In this document: in pieces, positions 37,722 through 62,289 of the stretch | Layout of the letters: the number at the start of each line of letters is the position of its first letter | Position numbering within the stretch: position 1 is the first letter of the stretch | Assembly: GCA_040388415.1 (NCBI GenBank) | Contig: JAZKBV010000001.1 | Coordinates: forward strand, 10,369 to 74,368 | DNA from: Patescibacteria group bacterium | GTDB lineage: Bacteria > Patescibacteriota > Minisyncoccia > Phycocordibacterales > PALSA-1337 | Direction of reading: 5' to 3' | DNA: 64,000 nucleotides | Position numbers and translations under genes: made by a program | The notes under the pieces: generated by a model | Database searches by the model: none | Told to the model about the DNA's origin: nothing | What the model saw: only the letters and a program-made list of their open reading frames with translations

Positions 37722-38606
37722 ATGAAAAAGGACCAGATAATCATAGACGGAAAGACCTACATCTCGGCGCGCCGAGGTGCCGAGATTGCCGGATATTCAG
37801 CGGATTATGTTGGCCAACTCTGTAGAGCGGGAAAAATAGATTGCGCAATGATCGGACGTAGTTGGTATGTCGGCGAAGAATCTATTTTGAAGCACCAAGA
37901 AGAAGCATTCAAAGCAAATCAAACTTCATTCAAACCGAATGAAATAAAAAGTCCTTACTCGCATGCGCCTGTCAGTGTATTTCCTTTGCTTTTGACGGGA
38001 CCACATGGAGGAGCAGTCTCTGCAATTCCTCGTACTATGTCTGAGCAGGTGGTTCATGCAGCCCATCAAGTTGCTCATGAGGCCAATCGTGCCACACCTC
38101 GCGCACTTGTAGCCTCACTCGTTATTACTGCGGTGGTTGGAGTCGGTGCTTTGCTCGTGTCACCACTCTTCATGTCTTTGGATGCAATCTCATCTGAAGA
38201 ATCAAATTCAGCATCTGTTGTACAAGCTGACGGGTCAGTCAGTGCGACATCATTTATACAAAAGAGTTTGCGTGCGATTTATGACGCTTCAGTTAAATAT
38301 ACGGCGCTCGGTATTGTTCCATCTGTCACCGCTTCTGCTGATCAGACATCAAACGATGCTGATCCATATCAGGAGCTCGCGTACGGCGGTCTTGTGGTGA
38401 CGCCTTCACAAGGTACGACGACAGATGCAAAGCTCGCAAATGCTATCACCAACTCATTTTCTGACCCAGTCGAAGTTCGCAAGAATGAAAATACAAACAC
38501 AGGAGTCATCACCCCAATGTTCCGCACCGTGAAGGGACATGACTTTATGTATGTATTGGTACCAGTACAGACAACATCGTCGACTTCTAACAATGACTCA
38601 AAATAA
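37722..38606 (+). CDS. Membrane-tethered HTH_17 (excisionase-type helix-turn-helix) protein with extracytoplasmic Ser/Thr-rich domain
   Basis: The N-terminal 60 aa (YISARRGAEIAGYSADYVGQLCRAGKIDCAMIGRSWYV) resembles the HTH_17 domain. A single TM helix spans aa 128-150 and the C-terminal half is S/T-rich. It is the first gene of the giant-protein locus. Confidence 0.5.
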   Translation: MKKDQIIIDGKTYISARRGAEIAGYSADYVGQLCRAGKIDCAMIGRSWYVGEESILKHQEEAFKANQTSFKPNEIKSPYSHAPVSVFPLLLTGPHGGAVSAIPRTMSEQVVHAAHQVAHEANRATPRALVASLVITAVVGVGALLVSPLFMSLDAISSEESNSASVVQADGSVSATSFIQKSLRAIYDASVKYTALGIVPSVTASADQTSNDADPYQELAYGGLVVTPSQGTTTDAKLANAITNSFSDPVEVRKNENTNTGVITPMFRTVKGHDFMYVLVPVQTTSSTSNNDSK

Positions 38607-38607
38607 T

Positions 38608-39405
38608 ATGAAAACTCCATTCATGAACAATTTGAAGTCATTCAGAGTCGATTACGATAAGGTCTTCGCATTTATCGCTTTCTTGTCTCTCATCTCATAT
38701 TTCTTCGCTTCTTATGTCTTTGCGCAGAACATGTCGAGCACGAACTATTCGATTCCTGATCAGAGTATCAATTTTGCTGGTAAACTTTCTTCATCGACGA
38801 ACTATACTGTCGAAGATACGGCTGGTGAAGTTGCTACTGGCTTTGCTTCAAGCACGAACTATGGCATCAGTGCAGGTTATCAGCAGATGAATATCGTCAC
38901 TCTTTCAGTTGTTCCACCTTCAAATGTCATCATGTCTTCAGCTCTCGGTGGTGTTTCAGGTGGTAGTTCGAACGGTTCGACAACCTTTACAGTCACTACA
39001 GATGATGCTGCGGGTTATACGGCGACGATTACGGCTAGTTCTTCTCCTGCACTGGTCAGTGGAGCCAATTCTTTCGCTGATTATAGCCCTGCTGGCGCCG
39101 CTCCTGACTATACCTACTCGATCTTGCCAACAAACTCAAACTTTGGCTTCTCAGTACAAGGGACTGATACTGATCAACGCTTCAAGAATAACGGCTCGAT
39201 CTGCAATACAGGCTCAAATACGACAGCGACTACATGCTGGGACGGTCTCTCGACCTCACCAAAGACCATTGCTGGTCGTACAACGAACAATACGCCATCA
39301 GGAACGCAGACGGTGTTGTATTTCCGCGCAGCAACCGGGTCGAACCATATTCAAGTTAATGGCACCTATGTTGCAACAACAACACTGACCGTGACCCCGC
39401 TATAA
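38608..39405 (+). CDS. Secreted protein, member 1 of a 3-copy paralog family in this window (signal anchor, Ser/Thr/Asn-rich beta-rich body, conserved Cys pair)
   Basis: It shares blocks with 59815..60519 and 61594..62289, including MSSALGGVSGGSSNG...TTDDAAGYTATITASSS, FKNNGS.CNTG...C and a C-terminal TYVATTTLTVTP. It has an N-terminal hydrophobic helix. Confidence 0.6.
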   Translation: MKTPFMNNLKSFRVDYDKVFAFIAFLSLISYFFASYVFAQNMSSTNYSIPDQSINFAGKLSSSTNYTVEDTAGEVATGFASSTNYGISAGYQQMNIVTLSVVPPSNVIMSSALGGVSGGSSNGSTTFTVTTDDAAGYTATITASSSPALVSGANSFADYSPAGAAPDYTYSILPTNSNFGFSVQGTDTDQRFKNNGSICNTGSNTTATTCWDGLSTSPKTIAGRTTNNTPSGTQTVLYFRAATGSNHIQVNGTYVATTTLTVTPL

Positions 39406-39411
39406 ACCGAT

Positions 39412-42400
39412 ATGAAGCATTTTATCTACACAACTCTCGTACTTGTCGGACTCTTCACACAGAGCGCCTTTCCAGTACGTGCATCAGTTGGTAGTACGTT
39501 CACTGCTTCATTCACCACGACTGGCGTTGTAGATTCGATCGCTCCTACGACACCAGTTGGAGTAACAGCGACTCCAGTGTCTCAGTCACAGATCAATCTT
39601 TCATGGACACCTTCAACTGATAACATTGGTGTTGCCGGATATGTCATCTTCCGCGATGCATCTGCGGTTGCTACAACATCAGTTGCATCATTTGTTGATA
39701 CCGGATTGGTCGCAAGCACAACATACACATATGAGGCGCAAGCATTCGATACATCATTTAATTATTCAAGTACATCAGCTGCAGTATCTACGACAACACT
39801 TCCGGTTCCTCCAGTCATCGTGGCTACGTCAACGCCGACAACCTCACCAGTAGTTTCTGGTGGCACTTCAGGTACACCATTTATCCATGGATTGAACATT
39901 GCAGTGCAACCAACCGAGGCTTCGGTCACATTCAATACTGCACGTCCAGCGCGTTCAACTATCTCATGGGGTACAACATCAGATCTCGAAGGAGGTTCGA
40001 TCACCAGTATTTTGTACGATACAACACATGCAGTCACTATTTCGAATCTCGTGCCCAATACGCACTACTTCGCACGCATCACTGTAGTCGACGCACGTGG
40101 CAATCAGTTTGCGTCTTCGATCGAATTTGTCACGCCAACTCTCATATATTCACCACTCGTCAACCCATCTAACTTCAGCGCACAGTTCGCGACTGTCGGA
40201 CGCACCGGAGTCAATCTCACCTGGACAAATCCAAACGATGCTCGTTTTGACTCTGTGCGCATCGTTCGTTCTGAAAGCTTCTTCCCACGCGATCAGTTTG
40301 ACGGCGTGCTCATATATGAGGGTGCACGCGAATCGTTCTTCGATGCAACAGCTATTCCTGGCAAGACATACTACTACGCTATTTTTGCAAAGGATGCGAA
40401 CGGTGCATATTCATCAGGTGCATTGGCACAGGCTTCATCGGTTGTCGGCACAAATCCATTCGTCACTGCGCCACAAGCTGGCTATGTCGATCCGCTCATC
40501 GCACGTTTGACGATCGCTGACTTTGAATTCATCCAGCAGGGCAAAGATCTCATGGTGAATGGTACAAGCACGGTCATGATCAACGGTATGAACAACCTCA
40601 CGATCCGTTTGCCCTACAACAAAGTTCCTGAAGTGTTGAAGACGATCGCAGTTTCTCTCACTGATCCAAAAGACTCATCAAAGGCATTTATCTTCCTACT
40701 CCGCGCAAACACAGAGAAGACATACTACGAGGCAAGCATCGGTGCGCTCAACGCAGTTGGTTCATTCCCATTAGCTATCAGCATCCTCGATTATCAAAAT
40801 CAGAGCTTGAAACAGATCGCCGGTTCAGTCCAAGCTCTCGTTTTTGCTGCGCAAGCTTCTTCAAATGACACAGACCAGCTTTTGCTCTTGATCATCCTTG
40901 TCGCATTGGTTGCTCTTGTGGTCTACGTGATTCGTGGACGTCGTACGGTCGGTATGAACAAGATGACTGGCGCAACGCTTGCTCTCATCTTGGTGTTCGG
41001 ATCATTCGGAACATTCTTTACTCCACAAGCTCACGCTGCGATCAATCAGCAGATCAATTATCAGGGCAAACTAACCAATGCATCGAACATCGCTGTCGCT
41101 GATGGAAGTTACATCGCATCGTTCAGTTTGTATACGGCTCCATCAGGTGGCGCAGCGATCTGGACTGAGCTCGATAACGGATCAAATAAAGTTGTTGTCA
41201 GAAATGGACTCTTTAGTGTCATGCTCGGTTCGACAACACCTCTCACGGGAGTTGATTTCAATCAGACATTGTATCTCGGCGTGACAATCGAAAGTGATTC
41301 AGAAATGACGCCCCGCAAGGTTATCGGCACGGTGCCTTCAGCTATCGTCGCGCAAACTCTTCAGAACATCACTCCCGGTCAGTTGCTCCGCAGTGATATT
41401 CAAAACTCAACATCGACATCAGCAACATTCCTCAATGTATTGCAGAGTGGAGCAGGAAAGATTGCCGAGTTCTTTGGTCAGTCGAGTTTCAGTGTATTCT
41501 CACTTCTTTCAAATGGAAATGTTGGCGTCGGTACATCGACACCAGGTTCACGTTTTGCTATCGCAGGTGCAGCTGGCGCGACCACAGCGCTCTTTAGCGT
41601 TTCAACGTCGACATCAGGTTTTGCGACAACAACGACATTCCAAATCGATCAGAACGGTAGCCTCGCTCTCAGAAATGGCGCGACACTCACATTGAACAAT
41701 TTAAACGGTCCATTGCAGGCGAACAACGGCGTTGTATCAGCGACATCATCAGTAGGTGTGTTGTATGGAGGTACTGGAATTACGACAGCTCCAGCGTACG
41801 GCAACCTCTTGATTGGAAATAACACAGGAGGTTACACGCTTACTGCGACATCTTCACTTGGTCTCGCCAACTTAACTGCAACAAATAGTACCCTCACATT
41901 TTCAGGTGCATATAATGGAAGTACTGCTCGCACAGTTGGTATCAACTTGGCTAATTCAAATACATGGACAGTCAATCAAGCATTTAATGCAAATGATAGT
42001 ACATCTGGCTCTATAAAAATTCAAAACGGTTCAGTCACTTCGAATTCGGGAGTTATCGGTATCGCAGGTTCATCAAATGCGCTCGCCACTGGAGCGGCGT
42101 CAGGGGATTTTGTGCTCAGTACAGATTTTTCTAATATTATCTTCTCGGCAAAGAGCGGGTCACGATCTGACATCTATATCAGAAGTAGTGATGGATATGT
42201 CGGCATCGGTACCACCTCACCATTTGCAAGACTTTCAGTCGACGGTCGCGGTGTCTTCAATCAAGATGTCCGTGCTGATTACTACACAGCAACTTCAACC
42301 TCGATCGCTTCAACTTTCCCATATGCTTCAACAACTGCTCTTACAGTTGCAGGTACAAATGGTCTTACGGTTGGTACATTGAATGGTCCTCTCCAAGCAA

Positions 42401-45400
42401 ATAACGGAACAGTTTCAGCAACCTCATCAATTGGTGTTCTCTACGGTGGCACTGGACTCACCACTGCTCCTACGTATGGCCAAGTGCTCGTAGGTAATGC
42501 TCTTGGTGGTTATACGCTTACCGCGACATCTTCACTCGGTTTCCCAGTTGGCGCTGCATATCCATTCACCTCACTCACCAACTATGGTGCAACTAACCAA
42601 GCAACCACGGGCATCGCATGGTTCCAGAATGGGTTGAATGCAAGTTCGACATCGCACTTTGTGAATGCATCTACCACCGCGCTCACTGTCGCAGGCAACC
42701 TCTATGTTGGCTCACTCAGTGGCCTCCTCCTTGCAACTAACGGCACAGTTTCATCAGTCTCAACTTCATCACTTAACCTTTCAATACCTCTCGCTTCAAC
42801 AACAGGAACACTTGGTGTTGCAAACGGCGGCACAGGGGCAACGGCCTTCGGACAAGGATGGATCTACTCAGTCGGTGGCACCGGAGCATTGAGTGCTTCT
42901 ACAAGTCCAACGGTTACATTCCTTTATGCAACTTCAACCTCGATCGCCTCAACCTTCCCATACGCTTCAACCACAGCGCTCACCGTGTCAAACGGCGCAG
43001 GATTCTTCCTCGGCTCACTCAACGGCCCACTCCAAGCAAATAACGGAAAGGTAAGTGCAACCTCATCAGTTGGTGTTCTCTACGGTGGCACCGGACTCAC
43101 AACAGCCCCTTCATATGGCAATATCTTGGTTGGTAATGCTCTCGGCGGGTATACGTTGACCGCGACTTCATCTCTCGGCATCACAGGTGTATCAGGTGGC
43201 ACCGCAGGCATGCTCACCTCATGGACTGGCGGTTCAACTCTCACTGCAACTGGTACTCCAACAGCTGCTGCATACTATGCTTCATCGACGACTGCGACAT
43301 CAACGTTCATGGGTGGTTTCGTTGCTGGCACGAACGGACTGACGGTGCTTCAGAATGGCAATGTCGGCATTGGAAATACAGCTCCACTTAATAAGTTCGA
43401 TGTGACCGGCAGTTTTAATTCGCAGTCACTAGATGGACAATCGATCAGAAACAATGATTCAGAAGGCATCGTTCTCGATGATGGCGGCAATGGGACAGGA
43501 ATCAGGCTTACCTCGTTGGGCACTGAATTTAGAGTCGATGGCAATAATGGCGCTTTCTTGTTCAATTCTGGAAACGTCGGCATCGGCACGTCATCACCAT
43601 TCACGGCTCTCTCAGTCATGGGTAATGGATATTTCGCAGGCAATGTCACCGCATCAAACTTCACTGCAACATCTACAACAGCGACAAGTACCTTCCCGAT
43701 CTTGAGACAAGGTGAAATCGCTATCATCGATCCTCTCGGAAGTGCAAAGTATGTCGTTGCTACCACCTCAACTGATGTAGGACGCGGAAATGCTTTGAAG
43801 TATGCTGTTTCGATCGCCCAAAACGGTTCTTCGATATACCTCGCATCTACGACGTATGATCTCGGAAACTCGACCCTGGATTTGAGTCGATTGAATACAT
43901 TTTTTGTTCATCTGCATGGTGCTGGCAAGTATAGTACAGTCATCAAGAGCACTGCCACATTTGGTGTTCTCGATATCAATTCAGGCGAAGAGATAACAGA
44001 TCTGTCTGTCATAAATCCAAGTTATATCGGTATCAATTCTATAGAAGCATTCCGTAATGTTCTTATAAAGGATGTTTACATTCTAGCGGGAACAGTGGGT
44101 ATGTCATTGACGCCTGATAGAGATGGAACTGGCTACATAGAGAACGTAACGATCGATTCAAAGGGCGATGGCATACAAATGGCAAATGGAGTCTATGACA
44201 GCACTATGATGAGGATCTTCATACACGATTCCGATATCCGTGGAATACCAGGCGGCTCATCGACTGCGTATGGTATCAAGGCCGATGGTGTGACCGCGTA
44301 CATTTATAATACGAACATAGATATGTCAGCGTCAGGCGGCGCGACCTCGTATGGTCTTGAAGTTAGCGAGCGAAATGATTACCCCGGATATCTCTACGTA
44401 TCAGGCGGACAAATCTCGTCCAAGACCACGGACTTGGTGAATACTGCTGGAACGCCAGACAGTACGCTTTCTATCACTGCAAACACGATCTACGATGTTT
44501 CAAAGGCAACTGGGACACTTGCATACGCTGACGCGAATCAGATAATTAAAAGCATTTCGCATGGGACAGAAAATCTAGGCTTGGGAAGTCCAAATCCAAC
44601 ACATAAATTGGAGGTTAACGGTACCTCATTCTTTGAGTGTGGCGATGTTGATGATGCCTTTTCAGTGTACGATACTCCTGATGCTATAAGCAGACTTAAA
44701 GTTAATTGTGACAATCCATCTGTCGTTCTAAATAACCTTATGACAGTAACAGAGGGCGCTGTCGGCATCGGCACCAGCTCGCCATTCACTGATCTCTCAG
44801 TTGTTGGCAATGGATACTTCACGGGCAATCTCACTGCAACAAATATTACAGCGACAGGCACACTCAAGGTTGGTACTCTTAACGGTCCGCTCCAAGCGAA
44901 TAATGGTATCGTCAGTGCAACTACATCGGTCGGTGTTCGTTACGGAGGTACAGGGCTCACGACCGCTCCTTCATATGGAAATATTCTTGTTGGAAACAAT
45001 GCAGGAGGTTACACACTCACTGCGACGTCATCGCTCGGTCTCGGTTCAGGCACTGTCAACTCTGGTCTTCAGGGACAGGTAGCGTTCTATAATGCAAATG
45101 GTACCGCTGTTACTGGTACTTCAACGTTGTTCGTTGGGACGAATGGAAATGTTGGAGTCGGGACGACATCGTCAAGTGAAAAATTGACCGTCAATGGAAA
45201 TCTTCATTTAGTGAATTCAGCAAGCAACGCATTCGATGGATTTACTATCGATGCAAATAATGGCGAGACTGGTATCTTGCGTGCGCCAGGTGCTTCAAGT
45301 GCTGCTCTCCAATTTATTGCTGGAACAGGTAATTCAGGTGGTTACTTCGGAATTAGAAATTCAGGTGGAACGAACGGTACTGGTCAATTCTTCTTTAACT

Positions 45401-48400
45401 CAACACAACTTTCACAGGATGTTCAATTTGAAACTAATTTTGCTAACTCATATCTTGGAAATGATGGAAGCATGAATTTGAACAACACTCTCTATATGCC
45501 AGCTGGGGCGGGAAGTATCGGTATCGGAACGGATGCTCCAGGAAGCGTATTACACCTTAAGTCAGTTAATCCAACGCTTACCGTTCAAAATAACGGCGCT
45601 GACGGTGTCGATTCAATATCTTTTGTTGATGATGAAGCTGAAAAGGCATCTATAAAAATGGATGCAGGAAACAATTTGTTCAGCCTATCAAGCAATTACA
45701 ATATTGCATTGTTGTCTAATAACAACGTCGGTATCGGAACCGCTGCTCCTGCATATGCTCTCGATGTCAACGGCTTCGTGAACGTGGATGGTGCATATGG
45801 ATACAAGCAAGATGGAACCACGATCCTCGTCGCAAGCAGCACAACATTGTCTGTATTGCTTGGTGGCAATGCGGGCGCATCGCTCACAGATCCAAATGGT
45901 CTCAGTAATACCGCGATCGGTTTCAATACATTGTCTACAGCAACATCTTCGGTTGAAAATACTGCTGTTGGTTACAATGCGCTCGCAAACAATGGCACAA
46001 ACTACAATACCGCCGTCGGTACCTGGTCAATGTATGCCAATACATTTGGTATCGATAACACTGCTATCGGTGGATATAGCCTTCGTTCAAATACGACAGG
46101 TTCAAGCAGTGCTGCGGGAGGTACATCAGCGCTCCAGGCAAATACAACAGGTTCGTTTAACACCGCTTTTGGTAAATCTTCGCTTCGTTTTAACACCACT
46201 GGTTCAAACAATACCGCTCTTGGTTTTCGTGCATTATTCAACTCTCTCGGCACAGGAAATATCGGCATCGGTTATTCAGCAGGAAAGTATGAGACTGGTT
46301 CAGACTCATTCTATGTAGACAACCAAGATAGAACAAACACAGCGGGAGATAAGGCTAGCGCACTCTTGTATGGTAAATTCAATGCGACAGCTGCGAACCA
46401 GACGCTCGTCATCAATGCATCAACTACTGTCGCGCAGAGCTTGAGCGTCCTTGGTTCAGGTGCCTCATACTTCCTTGGTAACCTCGGTATCGGTACAAGT
46501 TCACCATTTACAAAGTTTGCAGTCATGGGTGACGGTTACTATGCAGGAAATGTAAAAGCTTCAAACTTTACCGCTACCTCGTCTACTGCATCAAGTTTCC
46601 CATATGCTTCAACCACCGCGCTCACTGTCGCAGGCAACCTCTATGTTGGCTCACTCAGCGGCCTCCTCCTTGGAACAAACGGCACCGTCTCGGCAGTATC
46701 AACCTCATCACTTAACCTTTCAATCCCTCTTGCTTCAACAACAGGAACGCTGGGTGTCGCTAATGGTGGCACCGGAGCAACGACCTTCAGCCAAGGTTGG
46801 ATATATTCAACAGGTGGTACAACAGCACTCTCAGCTTCCACGAGTCCAACAGTCAACTACTTCACTGCAACTTCAACCACGATCGCTTCAACATTCCCAT
46901 ACGCTTCAACAACAGCTCTTACAGTTGCCGGCACAAACGGTCTCAAGGTCGGAACACTGAACGGCCCACTCCAAGCTAACAACGGTACAGTATCAGCAAC
47001 CTCATCAGTTGGTGTTCTCTACGGTGGCACAGGACTCACTACAGCTCCTGCATATGGTCAGGTCCTCGTCGGTAACGCACTTGGTGGTTACACTCTCACT
47101 GCTACGTCGTCACTTGGTATTACAGGAGTATCAGGTGGCACCGCAGGCATGCTCACCTCATGGACAGGGGGATCAACGCTCACCGCAACCGGCACTCCAA
47201 CAGCTGCTGCATACTATGCTTCATCGACGACAGCGACATCGACGTTCCGTGGCGGTTTGAGTGTTGCTGGCTCAGCAGGTCTCACTGTCCTTCAGAATGG
47301 CAATGTTGGTATCGGTACTGCATCTCCTAGTTATAAACTCCATGTCGCTGGCACTTTTGCTGTACAAACTGGTACCGGAGGCTCAACTAGTGATTCTCCA
47401 AGCTCTGATTCTTTCACCACAACATATCCTAATATCACTGCAAACAGCGTTACTGGTGATTATGGAGGTTTCTCATTTACATTCTATGATGACGGAAGCG
47501 GTAATCTTCTTGATACTGGTGATGATCATCAGATTGGAACAATTAACTATGTGAATGGAGTAGTAAGTACAGTTGATTTTGGTGATGATACAATCGACCA
47601 AATAAATTACACATATAGTGGCACGTATGCTTTAACTACTGATTCTAGTGGAAAAGTAGGTATCGGAACACTTTCTCATCTCTCAAATCTCGACGTTGGA
47701 GGCAATGTGGCTATCGGTTCATATGCCGGAACAAATGCCGCGCCAACTAATGGTCTCATTGTCAGCGGTAACGTTGGTATCGGCACTGCTTCACCTGAAC
47801 AAACTTTGCATGTGAAAGGTCCTCTACTTATAGAAGGTAATCCGACTCCGCGTTTGTATTTCAAATCAAATGATGGTAACTGGTTCGTGATAGATAGATA
47901 TTCTGGACAGGAATCATACAGCGGTTATTTTGGAGAGAATGGTGACACGGGTGATTTGTTCTTCCGTGGACAAGGCAGCTTCTATTTTGGTGACCAATCA
48001 ACACCAGCAATCCTCGCCAACGGCGCGACCAAAAAAGCGACATTTATATTTGCTTCAAGTACTGCATTTAGCACAGCATACGCATCATCAACAAGAGATT
48101 TCGTCGGCACGCTCAATCTCCCAAATATCACTGGCACACAATGTCTCCATTCGGTGAGCGGTGTAGTAAGTGGTACAGGAAGCGATTGCGCATCAGTTGC
48201 ATACCCATTCACCTCACTCACCAACTATGGTGCAACTAACCAAGCGACCACTGGCATCGCATGGTTCCAGAATGGCATCAATGCTTCAAGTACATCACAC
48301 TTTGTGAATGCTTCAACAACAGTTCTTTCGGCAACAGCGATTTGTATCTCAACTGACTGTCGTTCTGCATGGCCAACTGGTGGTGGCAGTGGGGGTGGCT

Positions 48401-51400: not shown

Positions 51401-54400
51401 AAAATCTGAGTTCTGGTCTTAATGCACAAGCGTGTCAGACTGCCACCGCAAACAATGGATCTGACCTGACAGGTTTTGTCTCCATCTGTGCTAATAACTC
51501 GAATTTCTACAATCCACAGACTTACAATGTTGGTGGAGGAGGTGATACATCCGTAATGTCCTTGGCCTCTGGAGATTTCTATATTAACAACGCTACGGCA
51601 AACAAGAAGCTCTACTTCATGACAGGCGGCACCGCGACATCAACAAATATCCGCATGACTGTTGATGGTAACGGCAACGTTGGTATCGGCACAACCACAC
51701 CAAATGCACTCCTTGCTCTTGTGGGTCAGAGCGGTTCAACAGGTCAGATCTTCGACGTCGCTTCATCGTCGGGCGCTTCTTACTTCCATATCACTTCAGC
51801 AGGAAATATCGGCATTGGAACTTCGTCTCCATTTGCAAAACTTTCTATTACTTCTATTGCACAAAATGGTGGAAACTCTCTCCTCACAGTGGCCTCAAGT
51901 AGCGGTTCAACTTTGTTCACTGTTCTTGGTAACGGCAATGTCGGCATCGGCACTTCAAGTCCTCTCGCAACCCTCCATCTCTATAATACAAATACTCCTG
52001 GCGCAGCGCCGTCGATCCTTATGGGAGGAAATAATGGGGGCGACACAGATTTCTGGATGGCGCGCGTCAATGATAATGATTCTACGGATAATGACTTCTT
52101 CCAGATTGGAACAGGAAATACGCCTGGCACGAATCCATATTTCAGCATCAATAGAAACGGATATGTAGGCGTCGGCACCACTTCGCCATTTGCAGTGGTA
52201 TCGATCGCAAATACACGCAACAGCGTCGCCAATACTCCGCTTTTGACCATTGCTTCAACAACGAATGGAACGGCAACCTCAACTCTTATGACAGTGCTTG
52301 CAAACGGCTCTATCGGCATGGGATCAAGTACTCCATCAAGCCTCGCAACTCTCAGTGTCAGCGGTTCAACATACTTGGGCTCAGGCATAGGAACTAGTTT
52401 GACTATCCACTCAGGTATCATCAACTATCCGACACAGGCAACAAGTACAGTTTTGAACGGTCTCGATAACGTTTGGTCTATTGCCACCTCTACGACAAAT
52501 ACTCCGATCTTCAGTATCTCAACACGTTCAAGTCCAGCAGGTCTCATTGGTATCGGCACATCATCACCATTCGGCAGATTCTCACTTGAAATGGGAACAA
52601 TGGCCAATAGTCTCTGGATCGGTAACCAGGGTAGTTCGACACCTTCATTTGTCATCGCTGGTGTGAACGGCAACGGCTCAGTCGGCGTTGCGACGAACAC
52701 CCCTTCAGCGAACTTCGCATTCTCAGTTGGTGGTTCTACGTATCTCGGCGCTGGCGTAGGTAGCAACTTGACTATCCATAGCAACCTCATCAACTATCCG
52801 ATTCAGTCGACCACAACTGTTCCAACAGGAGCGTTTGGCTGGTCTCTCGCGACTTCTACCGCGACTACTGGAAACCCACTCTTCACTACTTCTACGAACG
52901 GTGCAACTTCAACACTCGGCTTCTTTGTCGCTACGACAACAGGACTTGTTGCTGGTCAGGGTATGGGTCTCCCGTCAGCTCTCCAGAACTATATGATCGT
53001 TGGTAACGGTAAGGTTCAAGCTGGTATAGCTATTGTGAAAGGTGGTCTCTGTGTCGATAGTGATGGCTGGTGTACGGCTTCAACTACTGGTCGTGTCACT
53101 GCAGTCTCATCAACACTTGGTGGTTCAGACGTCGCTGAAATGTATTCATCAGCAGATGATCTCAAGCCAGGCGAGATTGTCAGTGCAAGCTATGGCACAT
53201 CGATCGTCCGCGCTTCAAAGGATACCGCTCACTCTCTCATGGGCATCGTTTCTACTGATCCTGGTTTGATACTCGGTCTCCAGCCAGACTCATCAGAATT
53301 TGCAGCAGGAAAGTTCCCAATCGCTCTTAATGGTCGCGTCCCAGTCAGAGTAAGCAATGAAAATGGTCCTATCGCTATCGGTGATCCGATCACTATCTCA
53401 TCAGTCTCTGGCGTCGGTATGCGTGCAACCGGAAGTTCAACCAAGGTGGTCGCCATCGCTCTCGAGCCGATGAACGATGTGAGCGGAACCGTCATGGGCT
53501 TTGTTCAGAACTACGAGCACGATGATCATCTTGCAAGTTTGTCAGTTGATACGAGCGGTACACTCAAGACAGTTGGTGATGTCTGTGCATACGGCACGCA
53601 GTGTTTGAGTGCTTCACTCAACCATATCAATGACCAGTTGAGTGCATTGTCTGCAACTGCCTCATCGACAAATACTGGCAGCGATATATCGAACGTATCG
53701 AGCCAGCTCGCAGCACTACAAGCTCGTATAGATTCTCTTGCATCATCGACTGTTTCGATCGCCGACTTCGCCTCAACGACCTCACGCCTCGAAACATTGA
53801 GCACTTCAACCCTCGCCATGATCGCTTCAACGACTGCTACCACTATCGCTTCATCGACAACATTCATCCAGTCAGTTGCTCTTGCGGTCTACGACATCAT
53901 GAACTCAAGCGGTCAGGTCATCAGCTCTGCAGGAGATTGGTCTGTCCATCAGATCACCGCCGCAATCGGTAATTTCCAGACGCTCATCGCTGGTCGCGTC
54001 GAGACCCAGACAGCCGCAGTGTCAAATGGTCTCGAAATGAAGTCACCAAGCGGACAAACCTGGTGTGTTCGCATCGATGATATGGGTAATTTCCAGAGAA
54101 CACAGGGATCATGCGACACAGCAACATCGACGCCGGTCGTGTCAGCAGCGCCAGTTATCCAAACAAATCCTGTATTTGATACGACATCAACAGGAACTAC
54201 CACAACAGCTACGAGTACCGTGACTACGGTAGAAGATGTAAGCGCAAGCTCAACACCAGCGACTACAGGAACAGAGGGTGCGACCGCCACATCAAGTACA
54301 GCAACAATAACTTCAGATCCTGCACCGAGCCCAACACCTACAACTGAAACTGCGACAGCACCCGCTCCAGAGACATCAACAGTCTCATCAGTAGCACCAA

Positions 54401-54447
54401 CTGATGCAACGACAGGATCTTCGGATGCAACCACGGCAACACCATAA
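39412..54447 (+). CDS. Giant secreted cell-surface protein (5011 aa): signal peptide, 2 FN3-like domains, internal TM hairpin, beta-helix-like block, tail-fibre/YadA-head-like repeat arrays, C-terminal coiled-coil and beta-rich domain
   Basis: It is a single uninterrupted frame of 15,036 nt. An N-terminal signal peptide (aa 1-24) is followed by two FN3-type domains. A hydrophobic hairpin spans aa 493-542. A beta-helix-like block lies at 43700..44580 and NTA-I/V-G repeats at 45900..46330. GNVGIGT(T/S)SP...L.V modules recur dozens of times. Confidence 0.8.
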   Translation: MKHFIYTTLVLVGLFTQSAFPVRASVGSTFTASFTTTGVVDSIAPTTPVGVTATPVSQSQINLSWTPSTDNIGVAGYVIFRDASAVATTSVASFVDTGLVASTTYTYEAQAFDTSFNYSSTSAAVSTTTLPVPPVIVATSTPTTSPVVSGGTSGTPFIHGLNIAVQPTEASVTFNTARPARSTISWGTTSDLEGGSITSILYDTTHAVTISNLVPNTHYFARITVVDARGNQFASSIEFVTPTLIYSPLVNPSNFSAQFATVGRTGVNLTWTNPNDARFDSVRIVRSESFFPRDQFDGVLIYEGARESFFDATAIPGKTYYYAIFAKDANGAYSSGALAQASSVVGTNPFVTAPQAGYVDPLIARLTIADFEFIQQGKDLMVNGTSTVMINGMNNLTIRLPYNKVPEVLKTIAVSLTDPKDSSKAFIFLLRANTEKTYYEASIGALNAVGSFPLAISILDYQNQSLKQIAGSVQALVFAAQASSNDTDQLLLLIILVALVALVVYVIRGRRTVGMNKMTGATLALILVFGSFGTFFTPQAHAAINQQINYQGKLTNASNIAVADGSYIASFSLYTAPSGGAAIWTELDNGSNKVVVRNGLFSVMLGSTTPLTGVDFNQTLYLGVTIESDSEMTPRKVIGTVPSAIVAQTLQNITPGQLLRSDIQNSTSTSATFLNVLQSGAGKIAEFFGQSSFSVFSLLSNGNVGVGTSTPGSRFAIAGAAGATTALFSVSTSTSGFATTTTFQIDQNGSLALRNGATLTLNNLNGPLQANNGVVSATSSVGVLYGGTGITTAPAYGNLLIGNNTGGYTLTATSSLGLANLTATNSTLTFSGAYNGSTARTVGINLANSNTWTVNQAFNANDSTSGSIKIQNGSVTSNSGVIGIAGSSNALATGAASGDFVLSTDFSNIIFSAKSGSRSDIYIRSSDGYVGIGTTSPFARLSVDGRGVFNQDVRADYYTATSTSIASTFPYASTTALTVAGTNGLTVGTLNGPLQANNGTVSATSSIGVLYGGTGLTTAPTYGQVLVGNALGGYTLTATSSLGFPVGAAYPFTSLTNYGATNQATTGIAWFQNGLNASSTSHFVNASTTALTVAGNLYVGSLSGLLLATNGTVSSVSTSSLNLSIPLASTTGTLGVANGGTGATAFGQGWIYSVGGTGALSASTSPTVTFLYATSTSIASTFPYASTTALTVSNGAGFFLGSLNGPLQANNGKVSATSSVGVLYGGTGLTTAPSYGNILVGNALGGYTLTATSSLGITGVSGGTAGMLTSWTGGSTLTATGTPTAAAYYASSTTATSTFMGGFVAGTNGLTVLQNGNVGIGNTAPLNKFDVTGSFNSQSLDGQSIRNNDSEGIVLDDGGNGTGIRLTSLGTEFRVDGNNGAFLFNSGNVGIGTSSPFTALSVMGNGYFAGNVTASNFTATSTTATSTFPILRQGEIAIIDPLGSAKYVVATTSTDVGRGNALKYAVSIAQNGSSIYLASTTYDLGNSTLDLSRLNTFFVHLHGAGKYSTVIKSTATFGVLDINSGEEITDLSVINPSYIGINSIEAFRNVLIKDVYILAGTVGMSLTPDRDGTGYIENVTIDSKGDGIQMANGVYDSTMMRIFIHDSDIRGIPGGSSTAYGIKADGVTAYIYNTNIDMSASGGATSYGLEVSERNDYPGYLYVSGGQISSKTTDLVNTAGTPDSTLSITANTIYDVSKATGTLAYADANQIIKSISHGTENLGLGSPNPTHKLEVNGTSFFECGDVDDAFSVYDTPDAISRLKVNCDNPSVVLNNLMTVTEGAVGIGTSSPFTDLSVVGNGYFTGNLTATNITATGTLKVGTLNGPLQANNGIVSATTSVGVRYGGTGLTTAPSYGNILVGNNAGGYTLTATSSLGLGSGTVNSGLQGQVAFYNANGTAVTGTSTLFVGTNGNVGVGTTSSSEKLTVNGNLHLVNSASNAFDGFTIDANNGETGILRAPGASSAALQFIAGTGNSGGYFGIRNSGGTNGTGQFFFNSTQLSQDVQFETNFANSYLGNDGSMNLNNTLYMPAGAGSIGIGTDAPGSVLHLKSVNPTLTVQNNGADGVDSISFVDDEAEKASIKMDAGNNLFSLSSNYNIALLSNNNVGIGTAAPAYALDVNGFVNVDGAYGYKQDGTTILVASSTTLSVLLGGNAGASLTDPNGLSNTAIGFNTLSTATSSVENTAVGYNALANNGTNYNTAVGTWSMYANTFGIDNTAIGGYSLRSNTTGSSSAAGGTSALQANTTGSFNTAFGKSSLRFNTTGSNNTALGFRALFNSLGTGNIGIGYSAGKYETGSDSFYVDNQDRTNTAGDKASALLYGKFNATAANQTLVINASTTVAQSLSVLGSGASYFLGNLGIGTSSPFTKFAVMGDGYYAGNVKASNFTATSSTASSFPYASTTALTVAGNLYVGSLSGLLLGTNGTVSAVSTSSLNLSIPLASTTGTLGVANGGTGATTFSQGWIYSTGGTTALSASTSPTVNYFTATSTTIASTFPYASTTALTVAGTNGLKVGTLNGPLQANNGTVSATSSVGVLYGGTGLTTAPAYGQVLVGNALGGYTLTATSSLGITGVSGGTAGMLTSWTGGSTLTATGTPTAAAYYASSTTATSTFRGGLSVAGSAGLTVLQNGNVGIGTASPSYKLHVAGTFAVQTGTGGSTSDSPSSDSFTTTYPNITANSVTGDYGGFSFTFYDDGSGNLLDTGDDHQIGTINYVNGVVSTVDFGDDTIDQINYTYSGTYALTTDSSGKVGIGTLSHLSNLDVGGNVAIGSYAGTNAAPTNGLIVSGNVGIGTASPEQTLHVKGPLLIEGNPTPRLYFKSNDGNWFVIDRYSGQESYSGYFGENGDTGDLFFRGQGSFYFGDQSTPAILANGATKKATFIFASSTAFSTAYASSTRDFVGTLNLPNITGTQCLHSVSGVVSGTGSDCASVAYPFTSLTNYGATNQATTGIAWFQNGINASSTSHFVNASTTVLSATAICISTDCRSAWPTGGGSGGGSWSTTTSQVTGRLVNYSNNTTDIVAIGANSTTTAKYWFDPNTQTSFLSGNVGIGTTSPFTALSVMGNGYFAGNVTASNFTATSTVASTFPYASTTALTVAGTNGLTVGTLNGPLQANNGTVSATSSVGVLYGGTGLTTAPTYGQILVGNNAGGYTLTATSSLGLPTFQYPFTSLTNYGATNQATTGIAWFQNGLNASSTSHFVNASTTALTVAGNLYVGSLSGLLLGTNGTVSAVSTSSLNLSIPLASTTGTLGVANGGTGATTFSQGWIYSTGGTTALSASTSPTVNYFTATSTSIASTFPYASTTAFSATGNAYVGGALAVGNQYIVATGTNAFASGYSDGAGGLSLIKSTGVGSVALGYVLNAGSINSNNSGSVAVGYAGYGNSINSQAAGSFAGGNTTILSGNIVASGAGSFVWGSNISATQSLSTAFGKGFTNSTADTFQVGYSSTPTLTVNTTGVGIGTTSPYAPLSVNGQVVASYFTATTSTASVFPYASTTALTVAGTNGLTVGTLNGPLQANNGTVSATSSVGVLYGGTGLTTAPTYGQVLVGNALGGYTLTATSSLGFPVGAAYPFTSLTNYGATNQATTGIAWFQNGLNASSTSHFETALFNGNVGIGTTSPFTALSVMGNGYFANNVTASYFTATSTTATSTFAGDISVGSGGSDAFVVDYSGNVGIGTSTPWKTLSVAGSMVLTGGLYDNAASAGTAGYVLMSTATGVRWVATTTSSGTYSFTPLTNFGATNQATTGIAWFQNGLNASSTSHFDNASTTVLSAATICISTDCRSAWPTGGGSGSSSWSTTTSSVAGRFINYSNNTTDIVTIGGNATTTAKYWFDPNAFTSFFTGNVGIGTTSPFTALSVMGSGYFANNVTASYFTATSTTATSTFAGDVTVGSGSDTYFIVDYTGNVGIGSTTPYAKLSVSNGSQQDGTLPLFTIASTTNQSLFAVLGNGNVTIGTTSQQSIDPNNPAKLLIDMGTSQSEEGINVIGTVNDFLENNVKNLSSGLNAQACQTATANNGSDLTGFVSICANNSNFYNPQTYNVGGGGDTSVMSLASGDFYINNATANKKLYFMTGGTATSTNIRMTVDGNGNVGIGTTTPNALLALVGQSGSTGQIFDVASSSGASYFHITSAGNIGIGTSSPFAKLSITSIAQNGGNSLLTVASSSGSTLFTVLGNGNVGIGTSSPLATLHLYNTNTPGAAPSILMGGNNGGDTDFWMARVNDNDSTDNDFFQIGTGNTPGTNPYFSINRNGYVGVGTTSPFAVVSIANTRNSVANTPLLTIASTTNGTATSTLMTVLANGSIGMGSSTPSSLATLSVSGSTYLGSGIGTSLTIHSGIINYPTQATSTVLNGLDNVWSIATSTTNTPIFSISTRSSPAGLIGIGTSSPFGRFSLEMGTMANSLWIGNQGSSTPSFVIAGVNGNGSVGVATNTPSANFAFSVGGSTYLGAGVGSNLTIHSNLINYPIQSTTTVPTGAFGWSLATSTATTGNPLFTTSTNGATSTLGFFVATTTGLVAGQGMGLPSALQNYMIVGNGKVQAGIAIVKGGLCVDSDGWCTASTTGRVTAVSSTLGGSDVAEMYSSADDLKPGEIVSASYGTSIVRASKDTAHSLMGIVSTDPGLILGLQPDSSEFAAGKFPIALNGRVPVRVSNENGPIAIGDPITISSVSGVGMRATGSSTKVVAIALEPMNDVSGTVMGFVQNYEHDDHLASLSVDTSGTLKTVGDVCAYGTQCLSASLNHINDQLSALSATASSTNTGSDISNVSSQLAALQARIDSLASSTVSIADFASTTSRLETLSTSTLAMIASTTATTIASSTTFIQSVALAVYDIMNSSGQVISSAGDWSVHQITAAIGNFQTLIAGRVETQTAAVSNGLEMKSPSGQTWCVRIDDMGNFQRTQGSCDTATSTPVVSAAPVIQTNPVFDTTSTGTTTTATSTVTTVEDVSASSTPATTGTEGATATSSTATITSDPAPSPTPTTETATAPAPETSTVSSVAPTDATTGSSDATTATP
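46622..46920 (+). repeat. Intragenic near-identical repeat, copy A (~300 bp) within giant gene
   Basis: The first ~260 nt are identical to 49028..49326 and the remainder differs at only a few positions, by my direct comparison. A more divergent copy (~85-90% identity) lies at about 42670..42980. Confidence 0.8.
49028..49326 (+). repeat. Intragenic near-identical repeat, copy B (~300 bp) within giant gene
   Basis: It matches 46622..46920, 2.4 kb upstream. Confidence 0.8.
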
Positions 54448-57866: not shown

Positions 57867-57880
57867 CCGTCAGATAGATC

Positions 57881-58642
57881 CTAAGGGTTTTGGATGGATT
57901 GAGTATACATGTTCATCTCATCAATGAGACCTGTGAATCCAGTGCTACCATAATTTCCAATAAGAATTATGTTTGTAGCCGCAATGTCCTGGATTATACC
58001 GCTTACTGTATTATCCAATTTTCCATTTACGTAATAATTCGTACTGCCACCATTGATATTAGACCAACTTAACATTATATGATTCCATTCACCTGGTTTA
58101 ATTCCGGTTTTGGTTGTTATGCCAGTATAACTATTCTCGGCTGTTATATGACAACTACTATCTTTAATTCTTAACCATAAATTAGCAATATAAATGAGAT
58201 TTATAAAACCACTCGAAGGACAAACAAACGATGAGGATGGCTTTATCCAAAAAGATATGCTGCCGTTTAATGGATTAATCGGGAAATTCAAAACTGTAAA
58301 TTGAGAAAGCGGCATGCTGCAGTTAGCACTGGTAGTTGTGAAATTTAACGCGCTTCCTTTAATTCCATTCGAGTCTACTGATACGTTTGTGCATGTCCAT
58401 GACGGTGAAGAATTTCCTGTCGCATCGATTGGTGGCACAGTATTAAGCGGATAGAGGGATACTGCATTTGTTGAAAACGCATGGTACGTATGATCATCAA
58501 AAGTTTGTCCTGCTCCAACCACTCCTTTTTGACGAGCACTCTGTAGACTCGCCAACACAACACTCGATAATAGCCCGATAATCGAGATTACCACCAGGAG
58601 CTCAATCAGAGTAAAACCTTTCGTGTGCGATTTATTGGTCAT
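57881..58642 (-). CDS. Prepilin-type N-terminal cleavage/methylation domain protein (type IV pilin-like) with C-terminal LamG-like jellyroll domain
   Basis: The N-terminus KGFTLIELLVVISIIGLLSSVVLASL is a class III signal with a hydrophobic helix. The C-terminal half carries LamG_3-like blocks (SFWIK...WNHIMLSW...YVNGK...LIDEMNMY). Confidence 0.8.
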   Translation of the reverse strand: MTNKSHTKGFTLIELLVVISIIGLLSSVVLASLQSARQKGVVGAGQTFDDHTYHAFSTNAVSLYPLNTVPPIDATGNSSPSWTCTNVSVDSNGIKGSALNFTTTSANCSMPLSQFTVLNFPINPLNGSISFWIKPSSSFVCPSSGFINLIYIANLWLRIKDSSCHITAENSYTGITTKTGIKPGEWNHIMLSWSNINGGSTNYYVNGKLDNTVSGIIQDIAATNIILIGNYGSTGFTGLIDEMNMYTQSIQNP

Positions 58643-58671
58643 TGAATTATTGATAATTGTATCATTAATCT

Positions 58672-59667: not shown

Positions 59668-59814
59668 GAGGAAATTATAACATGAGTAATAAAAAAGCCT
59701 TACGTTATACACAGTTTATGTTGTTGAAGAGGCGTAGCATTACATGTTAATATATAGGTATTCGAACTTGTTTTCGTACCTGTTTTTATTAAAATTATCA
59801 ATTAATTTATTTCA

Positions 59815-60519
59815 ATGATTAGAAAAATAACCCGCACACTCAATCAAGCCGTATTGGCGCTTTTTGTGCTCACATTTATCTTCACCGCTGTTGAGCCTGC
59901 GATCAGTTTTGGTGCAGTTACAACAAGTCAGTTCACTATTTCTCAGACAGTCACGAGTGAGATTTCGTTCGCAACACCAGCTGCAAATGTCACCATGTCG
60001 CCTTCGCTCGGAGGTATCACTGGTGGTACGTCAAATGGACAAACTCAAGTTGTGGTTACGACCAACAACTCTACTGGCTATAATATGACGCTTACTGCGA
60101 GCTCATCTGTTGGCATGATTGGCAATGCAAGTTCATCGAACAGTATCCCCGCATATACGCCTACAGTTAACCTTGTTCCTGACTATAGCTTCACTACTCC
60201 ATCAAATGCAGCTCGTTTCGGTTATAGTGTTGCCGCATCATCGACTGCTGACAACGTCACATTGTTCAAGAACAACGGATCAAATGCATGTAATACAGGT
60301 GCAAGTACAAACTCAGCAACAAGTAATGTAACGATTAACTGCTGGCTTAACGCATCAACAACTGCTATAACTATCATAAATCGTTCTCTCCAGACGCCAG
60401 CGTCAGGTGCAACGTCAACAGTTTACTTTAGAGTCAATATCACCTCTAACCCAAGTCCAGTTATTCCAAATGATACATACGTAGCAACATCGACTCTCAC
60501 AGCAACAACTAATCCATAA
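59815..60519 (+). CDS. Secreted protein, paralog family member 2
   Basis: It shares conserved blocks with members 1 and 3, and is about 75% identical to member 3 by eye. It has a signal anchor and the C-terminal motif TYVATSTLTATTNP. Confidence 0.6.
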   Translation: MIRKITRTLNQAVLALFVLTFIFTAVEPAISFGAVTTSQFTISQTVTSEISFATPAANVTMSPSLGGITGGTSNGQTQVVVTTNNSTGYNMTLTASSSVGMIGNASSSNSIPAYTPTVNLVPDYSFTTPSNAARFGYSVAASSTADNVTLFKNNGSNACNTGASTNSATSNVTINCWLNASTTAITIINRSLQTPASGATSTVYFRVNITSNPSPVIPNDTYVATSTLTATTNP

Positions 60520-60521
60520 AC

Positions 60522-61592
60522 ATGAATCAGATTTCCCAGACGACTATCTATCGAAAAATAAGCATTCTTTCGATAGGAGTTAGTGTAGCTATATTTGGAC
60601 TGACTATTTTCACAAGTATTTCATCTGTCAGTGCTGCTATGTCTGCGGTAAAAACTGTTTCTGCTCCAGCTCAGCCAACATATGCCCTTGAGCCTCTTCC
60701 TGATCTTGTTAATTACCATGATTTTGTTGTTGGCCCAGGCAAGATAGAGCTTCAGATTGCTCCTGGAGAATCACAAACCGTCGATCTCACTATTGCTAAC
60801 CGTCTTGGTTCAGATAAAGTTTTTCAGGTTAGCGAAGAAGATTTCACTGGTTCAAATGATCCAGGACGTTCTGTTGTATTGCTCGGAAGTGACCGAGGTC
60901 CATATTCATTGAAAGATAGCATTCATATTTCTTCGACAAAGATTATGATTCCGTTTGGTCAGCGTGCACGTGTTCCTGTAACGATTTCTTTGCCTGCTGA
61001 CGCACAACCAGGTGGTCTTTACGGTAGTGTTGTCGTTAGTGTGGTTAGCGTGGAAGGATCAACAACGTCTTCTGGTGTCGGTGGTACTAATCCTATTATT
61101 ACGCGCATCGGTACACTCTTCTTTGTCCGTGTCCCAGGGCCTACTGAAGCAAATGGTTCTATGCAGAGCTTCACGCTTCCAAGTGGCTCGTTTGTATGGT
61201 CAAGCTCAGTCAGTCAGACAGATCCGATATTGTTTAACATTTTGTTTAAAAATGATGGAAATGTCTATCTCGACCCATCAGGTACGATATCAGTGACAAA
61301 TATGTTTGGTGCGACTGTCGGCAATATCCTTATTGATCCTTGGTTTGCCATGCCTGATTCTCTCCGATTCCGTGAAGTCAAATGGCAGCCAACATTTCTT
61401 TTTGGCCGTTATGTTGCTCATGCAAACATAAACCCTGGTTATGGTAGTACAACAGAAACGGCTGATCTCGTATTCTGGGTTATACCTTGGAAGATTATCC
61501 TGCTCATCTTTATTGGTCTTATCGTGATCATCGGCGGTATTCGATGGATCGCTAGTCGTATAAGTTTTGTTCCTAAAAAATCAAAAAAATAA
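60522..61592 (+). CDS. Doubly membrane-anchored cell-surface protein (N-terminal signal anchor, beta-rich ectodomain, C-terminal TM + KKSKK tail), hypothetical
   Basis: Its hydrophobic N- and C-termini bracket an ectodomain of about 300 aa. It is sandwiched between paralogs 2 and 3, separated by 2 nt from one and overlapping the ORF of the other. Confidence 0.5.
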   Translation: MNQISQTTIYRKISILSIGVSVAIFGLTIFTSISSVSAAMSAVKTVSAPAQPTYALEPLPDLVNYHDFVVGPGKIELQIAPGESQTVDLTIANRLGSDKVFQVSEEDFTGSNDPGRSVVLLGSDRGPYSLKDSIHISSTKIMIPFGQRARVPVTISLPADAQPGGLYGSVVVSVVSVEGSTTSSGVGGTNPIITRIGTLFFVRVPGPTEANGSMQSFTLPSGSFVWSSSVSQTDPILFNILFKNDGNVYLDPSGTISVTNMFGATVGNILIDPWFAMPDSLRFREVKWQPTFLFGRYVAHANINPGYGSTTETADLVFWVIPWKIILLIFIGLIVIIGGIRWIASRISFVPKKSKK

Positions 61593-61593
61593 T

Positions 61594-62289
61594 ATGCGCA
61601 CTGTAGTCCAAGCAATAACAGCTCTTTTCATCTTTAGTTTCCTTTTCGTGGCAATAGAGCCTGCGATTAGTCTTGGTGCGGTCACAACAAGCCAGTTCAA
61701 GGTTTCTCAGGTTGTTACAACTGAAGTTTCATTTGCGACACCGGCCTCAAACATTGTCTTGTCACCATCACTTGGAGGTATCACTGGTGGTACGTCAAAT
61801 GGTCAGACTCAGGTTGTCGTAACTACAGGTAATAGTACCGGCTACAACATGACACTCACAGCTAGTTCATCGCTCGGTATGATCGGTAATGCGAGCTCAT
61901 CGAACTATATCCCTGCATGGCCAGCGACTACCACTCTTCCAGCTTATTGGATGACTTCAGCTTCAGTTGCCGCAAATACCGCTGCTTTTGCCTATAGTGT
62001 TGCCGCTTCATCAACAGCAGATAATGTGACCCTCTTCAAAAATAATGGTTCAAATACTTGCAATACTGGTGCAAGTACAAACTCAGCGACAAGTAATGCC
62101 ACGATTAATTGCTGGCTCAATGCTTCAACGACTCCAGTTACGATTGTTAACCGTACTCTCCAAACATCAGCCTCAGGTGCGACAACAACTCTTTATTTCC
62201 GTGTTGTTGTTAACTCAAATCCAAGCCCTGTTATTCCAAACGACACATATGTAGCAACCTCAACTCTTACGGCAACAACTAATCCATAA
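61594..62289 (+). CDS. Secreted protein, paralog family member 3
   Basis: It is highly similar to 59815..60519 along its whole length. The ATG at 61594 follows the stop of the upstream gene. Confidence 0.6.
   Translation: MRTVVQAITALFIFSFLFVAIEPAISLGAVTTSQFKVSQVVTTEVSFATPASNIVLSPSLGGITGGTSNGQTQVVVTTGNSTGYNMTLTASSSLGMIGNASSSNYIPAWPATTTLPAYWMTSASVAANTAAFAYSVAASSTADNVTLFKNNGSNTCNTGASTNSATSNATINCWLNASTTPVTIVNRTLQTSASGATTTLYFRVVVNSNPSPVIPNDTYVATSTLTATTNP

Follow-up and report, generated by a model that had tools for sequence, protein, structure and literature searches.

A conserved operon of Paceibacteria-type bacteria as a candidate for an usher-less, Pam-like pilus coupled to a giant tail-fibre-like protein

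Pili whose subunits are joined by donor strands without an usher have been described in the Candidate Phyla Radiation (CPR). In the Pam pilus of Candidatus Mycosynbacter amalyticus (Saccharimonadia), the pilins are donor-strand-joined and no usher is used; PamA, PamB and PamE possess a nine-strand N-terminal sandwich, a linker donor strand and a truncated immunoglobulin-like (Ig) C-terminal domain (Troman et al., bioRxiv 10.64898/2026.03.03.709456). The same preprint describes the chaperones PamC and PamD as PapD-like with a C-terminal transmembrane (TM) helix kept, PamT as a small tip subunit, and PamR as a tether made of an N-terminal strand, tandem fibronectin type III domains and a TM helix. 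Furthermore, a tail-fibre-like gene adjoins the pam operons, and the Pam pilins carry paired cysteines. In the WxL clusters of Firmicutes, the WxL-interacting protein (WxLIP) consists of DUF916 (PGBD), DUF3324 (HBD) and a TM helix (PDB 9i1y and 9i25). Here, a stretch of 64,000 nucleotides (nt), referred to as the window, was analysed; it belongs to a 208-kb contig of a Patescibacteria metagenome-assembled genome (MAG; NCBI locus tags V4524_00335 and V4524_00345). A first-pass annotation had proposed that envelope genes around a giant gene in this window cooperate in building or decorating a host-attachment fibre. The genes H, P, C, T, N and F were found to form a conserved operon. The description that fits the system best is that of a simplified, Paceibacteria-wide relative or analogue of the Pam pilus, with a chaperone homologous to the Firmicute WxLIP and with coupling to a giant fibre.

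To obtain related loci, the C-family alignment and two peptide patterns were run against one genome of each GTDB species, and the best 80 of 118 matches were used. All of these loci came from CPR MAGs, assigned to Paceibacterota, Taylor-, Kaiser-, Nomura- and Zambryskiibacteria or Parcubacteria, or carrying generic labels. The taxon labels are often assigned by the submitter, such as 'uncultured Candidatus Saccharibacteria' and one 'Nanoarchaeia archaeon'. The operon was counted over 81 loci, whose six-frame open reading frames (ORFs) were searched with profiles or sequences of each window protein, and the denominators of the adjacency fractions are the loci with enough flanking sequence. One canonical gene order, H-P-C-T-N-F, recurred across these 81 loci of Paceibacteria-type MAGs. 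P was directly upstream of C in 69/71 loci, T was directly downstream of C or fused to it in 67/73, and N followed further downstream in 51/57. H opened the operon, upstream of the other genes, in 46 of 63 loci, and F was recognised by single-sequence search in 23 of 48. The first-pass annotation had recommended a check of co-occurrence and gene order in related CPR genomes and had allowed that the grouping might be coincidental. The check was in favour of a functional grouping of the core genes, for which the doubt was not borne out, the same families being found in the same order in 81 loci.

Gene fusions also joined the families. N was fused to F (N::F) in the window, as it was at seven or more further loci, and C was fused to T (C::T) in two loci and in several protein clusters of about 570 amino acids (aa), with the same TM-hairpin style of joining. 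The two C::T loci were as follows:
C::T fusion, L002 10001-11740 and L022 9875-11599, about 575 aa: chaperone-like part including the TM helix, then a signal peptide and an STNY-type pilin.
In both kinds of fusion the downstream partner keeps its own signal peptide, and therefore signal peptidase could split the two halves.

Since the same families form one operon in related loci, the window carries the same system, rearranged and split into two clusters that are 5.4 kb apart: H-T-N::F at 37722-54447 and P-C-P at 59815-62289. All the ORFs flagged before were present with the coordinates and strands given for them. The intergenic gaps within the clusters were 1, 6, 2 and 1 nt. The P-C-P order was also found in the close relative L004, and a LOG-tgt-PfkB block separates the giant gene from the P/C cluster in L004 and L006 as in the window, while L005 showed P-P-C directly after the giant gene. 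Scans for promoters and terminators round both clusters gave counts that were not above those of shuffled sequence, and the transcription units were not defined from them. The genes of the system in the window are:
H, 37722..38606, plus strand: 294 aa; cytoplasmic N-terminal helix-turn-helix (HTH) domain, one TM helix (aa 128-146) and a conserved extracytoplasmic C-terminal domain.
T, 38608..39405, plus strand: signal peptide, three STNY repeats at aa 41-96 (nt 38728-38895) and a pilin domain; PamT-like.
Giant ORF, 39412..54447, plus strand: 5011 aa, composite N::F.
N module (aa 1-514), 39412..40953, plus strand: signal peptide, strand SVGSTFTASFTTTGVV, fn3 domains, a conserved domain and a TM helix (aa 489-507); PamR-like tether.
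F part (aa 515-5011), 40954..54447, plus strand: signal-peptide-like segment at aa 518-547 (ending in TPQAHA, followed by AINQQINYQGKL) and a repeat-rich, tail-fibre-like body.
P1, 59815..60519, plus strand: signal peptide, N-terminal strand at aa 35-54 (nt 59917-59976), Ig-like pilin fold and an invariant Cys pair.
C, 60522..61592, plus strand: signal peptide, two Ig domains (WxLIP/PapD-like) and a C-terminal TM helix (aa 323-346).
P2, 61594..62289, plus strand: second P-type copy, 78% identical to P1.

The relationship of C to known proteins was obtained from both sequence and fold. C matched Pfam PF06030 (DUF916 of WxL-interacting proteins) with 22.7 bits, just under the gathering score of 27.3, and its best sequence match in the PDB, when C was searched alone, was WxLIP1 of E. 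faecium. With a profile of 75 C homologues, EfmWxLIP1 was matched in the PDB with an E-value of 1.2e-8, and PF06030 was matched by 68 of the 75 family members. In the AlphaFold2 model of C (pLDDT 87.4), a signal helix at the N-terminus and the TM helix at the C-terminus flank two beta-sandwich domains. In the Foldseek search with this model, WxLIP was the top match (E 3e-12, about 280 columns aligned over both domains), followed by the chaperone-usher chaperones CfaA, CsuC, Caf1M, FimC, DraB and PapD, and also by RbmA. C is a true sequence and fold homologue of the Firmicute WxLIP (DUF916) with a PapD-type chaperone fold. The loose resemblance to WxL loci noted in the first-pass annotation was therefore real for this 356-aa protein; it did not extend to the three secreted paralogs, which are not WxL proteins and have a pilin-like fold. 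The same protein had been called doubly anchored: its C-terminal TM helix was confirmed, while the supposed N-terminal anchor is more likely a cleaved signal peptide.

In addition, the architecture of C, with a two-domain PapD-like fold, a signal peptide and a C-terminal TM helix, agreed with that of PamC and PamD, the comparison being made by architecture and fold alone. Between the Ig domains, aa 176-204 form a low-confidence loop that is followed by the nearly invariant NPIITRIGTLFF. This region aligned with the hairpin region of WxLIP, for which insertion into WxL is predicted, and the NPIITRIGTLFF segment is a candidate chaperone donor strand. By profile search, the C superfamily comprised 7288 clusters (50% identity) at E <= 1e-3, 3408 at <= 1e-10 and 636 at <= 1e-30.

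The three secreted paralogs P1, P2 and T aligned over their whole mature length with 41-78% identity, and the motif FKNNGS.CNTG and both cysteines, which had been reported before, were indeed invariant. The P and T subtypes were related with E-values of 1e-23 to 1e-30 in BLASTP and 1e-50 in profile-profile comparison, far beyond chance. T differs from P1 and P2 by an insert of three STNY repeats directly after the signal peptide; an alternative, longer T ORF starting at 38539 is possible and would overlap the upstream gene. The STNY region was also tried as a homologue of the N-terminal strand of P, and this was rejected, as hhalign aligned the pilin domains only. No sequence match of P was found in Pfam, NCBIfam or the PDB, the last being searched with the single sequence and the family profile alike. 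The model of P was a single beta-sandwich of about 200 mature residues, and the closest folds in Foldseek were those of CsuA/B, CupE and CfaB (CfaB E 8e-4), indicating a chaperone-usher pilin-like fold. Weaker fold matches were obtained to TasA/TLP fibres, archaeal bundling pili and cannulae.

The N-terminus of P was of particular relevance. In the family alignment, aa 35-49 were among the most conserved stretches (Q39, F40 and E49 at least 90%), while the N-terminal segment had the lowest pLDDT and was a coil in the monomer model. A conserved segment that is nevertheless a low-confidence coil fits the expectation for a donor strand. The strand consensus of P was DQFTVSQxITxEISF, and a looser motif of P and N, about (E/T)DxF(T/I)(V/I)SQx(V/I), was located directly after the signal peptide. 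By regular expression the motif was found in 46/70 P and 22/42 N proteins, compared with 2.4% of background windows. Moreover, a position-specific scoring matrix (PSSM) built from the P strands gave a median of 0.3 bits on the N termini of N, with 11 of 43 at 12 bits or above, compared with a background median of -12.3, a 99th percentile of -0.1 and 0/3000 at 12 bits or above. On T, F, C and H, the PSSM scored like background. The conserved coil at aa 35-49 of P and the occurrence of the same motif behind the signal peptide of N support strand exchange, which is suggested by folds and motifs.

The giant ORF is a composite of a tether-like and a fibre-like part. Its N module matched fn3 and Pur_ac_phosph_N. 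In 43 loci N stood as a gene of its own, encoding about 520 aa with a signal peptide, the P-like strand and a C-terminal TM helix. At aa 489-547 (40876-41052), the giant protein runs from a strong TM helix through a short basic loop into a second signal-peptide-like segment that ends in AHA before an A; this junction corresponds to the boundary of the separate N and F genes in most related genomes. F was separate in most loci, with its own signal peptide and the mature N-terminal motif xNPQINYQGKL. Signal peptidase may cut the 5011-aa product as a polyprotein; alternatively, the ATG at 40954 inside the ORF may provide a further start for F. The F body comprises about 4,460 residues after the signal-peptide-like segment, and matched virion structural, tail spike and tail fibre proteins of PHROG with E-values of 3e-19 to 5e-10. 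At the DNA level, dispersed direct repeats of several families (164-300 nt, 62-89% identical) are present in the giant gene; they indicate modular duplication of fibre segments and are also a possible source of assembly error. In the Pfam search of the giant protein, nothing beyond the N-terminal fn3 region was found, even at E <= 5. A P-like domain inside the giant protein, in analogy with a 'large WxL' protein, was considered and rejected, the BLASTP matches being low-complexity only (E >= 0.3).

Compared via the published descriptions, every element of the Pam system has a counterpart in the operon, a tentative one in the case of PamT, except the two-domain pilins, an architecture that was not among the genes of the conserved operon in the 81 loci. 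Both are CPR-specific surface systems without an usher, with paired pilin cysteines and a tail-fibre-like neighbour, the filament of the present system being a predicted one. The N module has the strand, fn3 domains and TM helix of PamR, beside which it was set by architecture alone. Some differences were also observed. The operon has one chaperone gene, whereas the Pam system has two; it possesses its own HTH membrane protein and a MerR-like gene; and its lineage is of the Paceibacteria type. The Pam preprint (bioRxiv 10.64898/2026.03.03.709456) mentions neither WxL, DUF916 nor Paceibacteria. In the literature searched, no account of this operon was found for DUF916 or chaperone-usher-like systems in Patescibacteria or Parcubacteria, and no paper was found linking DUF916 to CPR bacteria.

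The archaic and alternate chaperone-usher pili (Csu, CupE/SCPU, CFA/I) were similar in fold, P being close to CsuA/B, CupE and CfaB, and C to CsuC, CfaA and Caf1M. An N-terminal donor strand working together with a chaperone, as we infer it here, would be an assembly principle common to both. However, sequence similarity was undetectable, and the present system has neither an outer membrane nor an usher, its chaperone is membrane-anchored, and its filament would be placed on a dedicated TM tether. No usher domain was found in any operon gene of the window, and the six conserved families contain no beta-barrel pore.

On the basis of the gene content, homologies, folds, gene order, fusions and common strand motif, we infer polymerisation, an order and direction of assembly, cleavage of N::F, roles for T and F, and regulation as follows. 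All structural parts would leave the cell via Sec. The N-terminal extension of P1 and P2 would serve as the donor strand for the next subunit, by which P would polymerise. C, held in the membrane by its C-terminal helix, would cap freshly exported subunits and pass them on for strand exchange. The strand of N would enter the last P subunit, so that N would end the filament and tie it to the membrane, as proposed for PamR. T may be a specialised tip or adaptor subunit, and F may be the host-binding fibre or adhesin; in this genome F is made fused to N and would probably be freed by signal peptidase at the internal signal peptide. H and the small MerR-like protein R may control the operon. An usher-less, chaperone-assisted donor-strand pilus of a monoderm Paceibacteria-type CPR bacterium, coupled to a giant tail-fibre-like adhesin and representing a variant of the Pam pilus, is thus the reading that we consider likely, with moderate confidence, and the structure is probably used by these tiny bacteria to grip host cells. 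The cooperation of the genes claimed in the first-pass annotation was supported for H, the three paralogs, the 356-aa protein and the giant protein by the operon in 81 loci and by the fusions.

Several observations weigh against a Pam-like pilus. P is a single-domain protein of about 200 aa with an N-terminal strand, whereas PamA and PamB are two-domain proteins with a linker strand. No sequence match to the Pam models was obtained except a weak one of T to PamT (NCBIfam NF058579, CPR_pilus_PamT), with an E-value of 3.7e-11 and 42.9 bits compared with the equivalog cut-off of 240. Of these 42.9 bits, 30 came from the STNY region, and the pilin domain of T alone was unmatched; two T orthologues matched the same model with E-values of 4e-8 and 7.5e-8. 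In the NCBIfam scans, 75 C-family members matched no Pam model, and 82 P/T-family members matched none besides PamT, which was matched by T only. The Foldseek TM-scores of P were modest (0.35-0.50), and the window's own N strand scored only 2.0 bits in the P-strand PSSM. Concerning the attachment of F, no domain common to F and P or T was detected by BLASTP. Strand exchange itself was deduced from folds and motifs, and WxLIPs, to which C is most closely related, are believed to act in complexes that are not polymeric.

The last point leads to an explanation that we regard as rather unlikely, in which the genes encode a WxL-type, non-polymeric surface complex. By inserting a strand, C would complete and stabilise single P and T molecules on the cell envelope, and the whole would be a docking platform for the giant protein with no filament. 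The closest sequence and structural relatives of C are the WxLIPs of E. faecium, which C matches in length, domain order, signal peptide and C-terminal helix. Furthermore, one WxLIP-type gene between two small secreted proteins is the arrangement of the commonest WxL cluster (one WxLIP and two WxL), in which the WxLIP strand is predicted to be inserted into the beta-sandwich of the partner and to complete it. However, P and T are not WxL domains: no WxL match was found in Pfam, and the one conserved Trp lies in CWL/CWDGL with no second motif, so that there is no dual W-x-L motif, in agreement with the failure of the first-pass annotation to find one. The fold of P matched pilins and not the WxL chain of 9i25, and no WxL chain was present in the Foldseek match lists for P. 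Moreover, the conserved, unstructured strand of P that is common to the tether N would have no role in a 1:1 complex. F has no P-like domain and hence is not a 'large WxL' protein; a membrane tether and a separate giant fibre are found here instead, and in a CPR bacterium, not in a Firmicute.

A self-assembling donor-strand fibre that needs no chaperone, of the type of TasA, archaeal bundling pili or cannulae, is quite improbable in our judgement. C would then be a separate Ig-domain adhesin or matrix anchor like RbmA, which its model also matched (E 4e-9), and the TasA/TLP fibres, archaeal bundling pili and cannulae do share beta-sandwich subunits, the donor-strand complementation proposed here and the lack of an outer membrane with the present system. 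They differ in being assembled without a PapD-like chaperone, whereas here C adjoins P in nearly all loci, is fused to T in several genomes, and aligned with pilus chaperones and WxLIP over both domains with better TM-scores than with RbmA. TasA in addition needs SipW, which has no counterpart here: in the Pfam scan and the 81-locus survey, a SipW-type peptidase gene was absent from the conserved families and from the window clusters. As for a chance neighbourhood or prophage remnant, with a phage-derived tail-fibre-like gene beside unrelated small genes, parts of the giant protein do match tail spike and tail fibre families of PHROG, and the two clusters of the window are apart from each other. 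Nevertheless, this explanation is effectively refuted by the conservation statistics, the same gene set and order being found in 81 loci beside housekeeping genes such as gatB and obg; the operon holds no other phage genes, and its families are joined by fusions.

A bolder extension of the Pam-like pilus was also considered, and it is judged to be more doubtful than probable. In this extension, H-P-C-T-N-F would be an undescribed Paceibacteria-wide pilus, whose minimal pilin, of one domain, owes its polymerisation to an anchored chaperone of the WxLIP type. The WxL clusters of Firmicutes, the Pam pilus of Saccharimonadia and the chaperone-usher pili of diderms would be branches of one ancient strand-complementation machinery, to which the usher was added late. 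The N::F polyprotein would be cut at the internal signal peptide, and the fibre would be mounted on the filament via T.

The putative regulators were located at the start of the operon. H showed a weak HTH_17 match, and both its N-terminal and C-terminal consensus were conserved across the loci. Two small genes are found upstream of it:
R1, 36459..36716, minus strand: 85 aa, MerR/HTH_17-like cytoplasmic regulator, divergent from H.
R2, 37117..37347, minus strand: 76-aa ORF, partial duplicate of R1.
R1 was 53-70% identical to small MerR/HTH_17 proteins adjoining the operon in L001 and L002, and 32 of the roughly 60 loci with sufficient sequence had an R1 orthologue directly before H and transcribed divergently from it. 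The first 48 aa of R2 are identical to aa 17-64 of R1 and the rest is divergent; R2 is probably degenerate. These two divergent genes, as well as the TM helix and the second signal peptide inside the giant ORF, had been missed in the first-pass annotation.

Two further genes, which had been placed in the same surface system, lie between the clusters:
LamG protein, 54469-55335: Laminin_G_3, E 6.6e-15.
Prepilin-LamG fusion, 57881-58642, minus strand: N_methyl and Laminin_G_3.
Both were rejected as components of the system on co-occurrence. LamG-like proteins were found in 2/81 loci, and prepilin-LamG-like proteins in 8/81, mostly several kilobases off. In L004, L005 and L006, the closest relatives, the two genes were absent or at another place: between the giant gene and P, L006 had neither, and L004 had the LamG gene without the prepilin gene. 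The distance between the giant gene and the LamG gene was 21 nt rather than the 22 nt given before. With this short gap, and with the only terminator-like hairpin lying after the LamG gene, the two genes may share a transcript in this genome, which is a lineage-specific addition. The prepilin-LamG gene was confirmed as type IV pilin-like by its class III signal peptide and N-methylation motif (N_methyl E 5e-8, TIGR02532 E 1e-7). Its family is multi-copy, with a partial copy at 63578-64000 (plus strand) and three tandem copies in L004 (13062-15713), and likely represents minor pilins or adhesins of a type IV pilus, independent of the operon. In this lineage only, the two halves of the operon are kept apart by the housekeeping genes tgt, LOG and PfkB, which, like the LamG and prepilin-LamG genes, are lineage-specific neighbours.

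Some additional features of the surroundings were observed. The gene gatB (34889-36388, minus strand) flanks the operon in the window, L001 and L002, and obg is near it in L001 and L002; the gatB flank suggests a conserved chromosomal position of the canonical operon. The locus L044 (DATGWK010000115.1), labelled 'Candidatus Nanoarchaeia archaeon', had a complete H-P-C-T-N operon typical of Paceibacteria, and is probably a mis-binned or mislabelled CPR contig. DsbD-type TM, redoxin and thioredoxin-like domains are combined in a membrane protein at 26105-27913, which may have a bearing on the extracytoplasmic Cys pair that is invariant in the pilin-like proteins. In addition, two exporter modules of HlyD-like and MacB/FtsX-type ABC proteins were found at 59-4203 and 20737-24487, in a bacterium presumed to have no outer membrane.

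Host finding and attachment by ultrasmall CPR bacteria are understood mainly for a few cultivated Saccharibacteria. For the large Paceibacteria/Parcubacteria group, the operon is a concrete and widely conserved candidate for the attachment apparatus, with a defined list of parts. Moreover, C, being homologous to WxLIP and having the PapD fold, offers a handle on a common origin of donor-strand assembly in monoderm, CPR and diderm bacteria, and the variable giant fibre is an obvious candidate determinant of host range.

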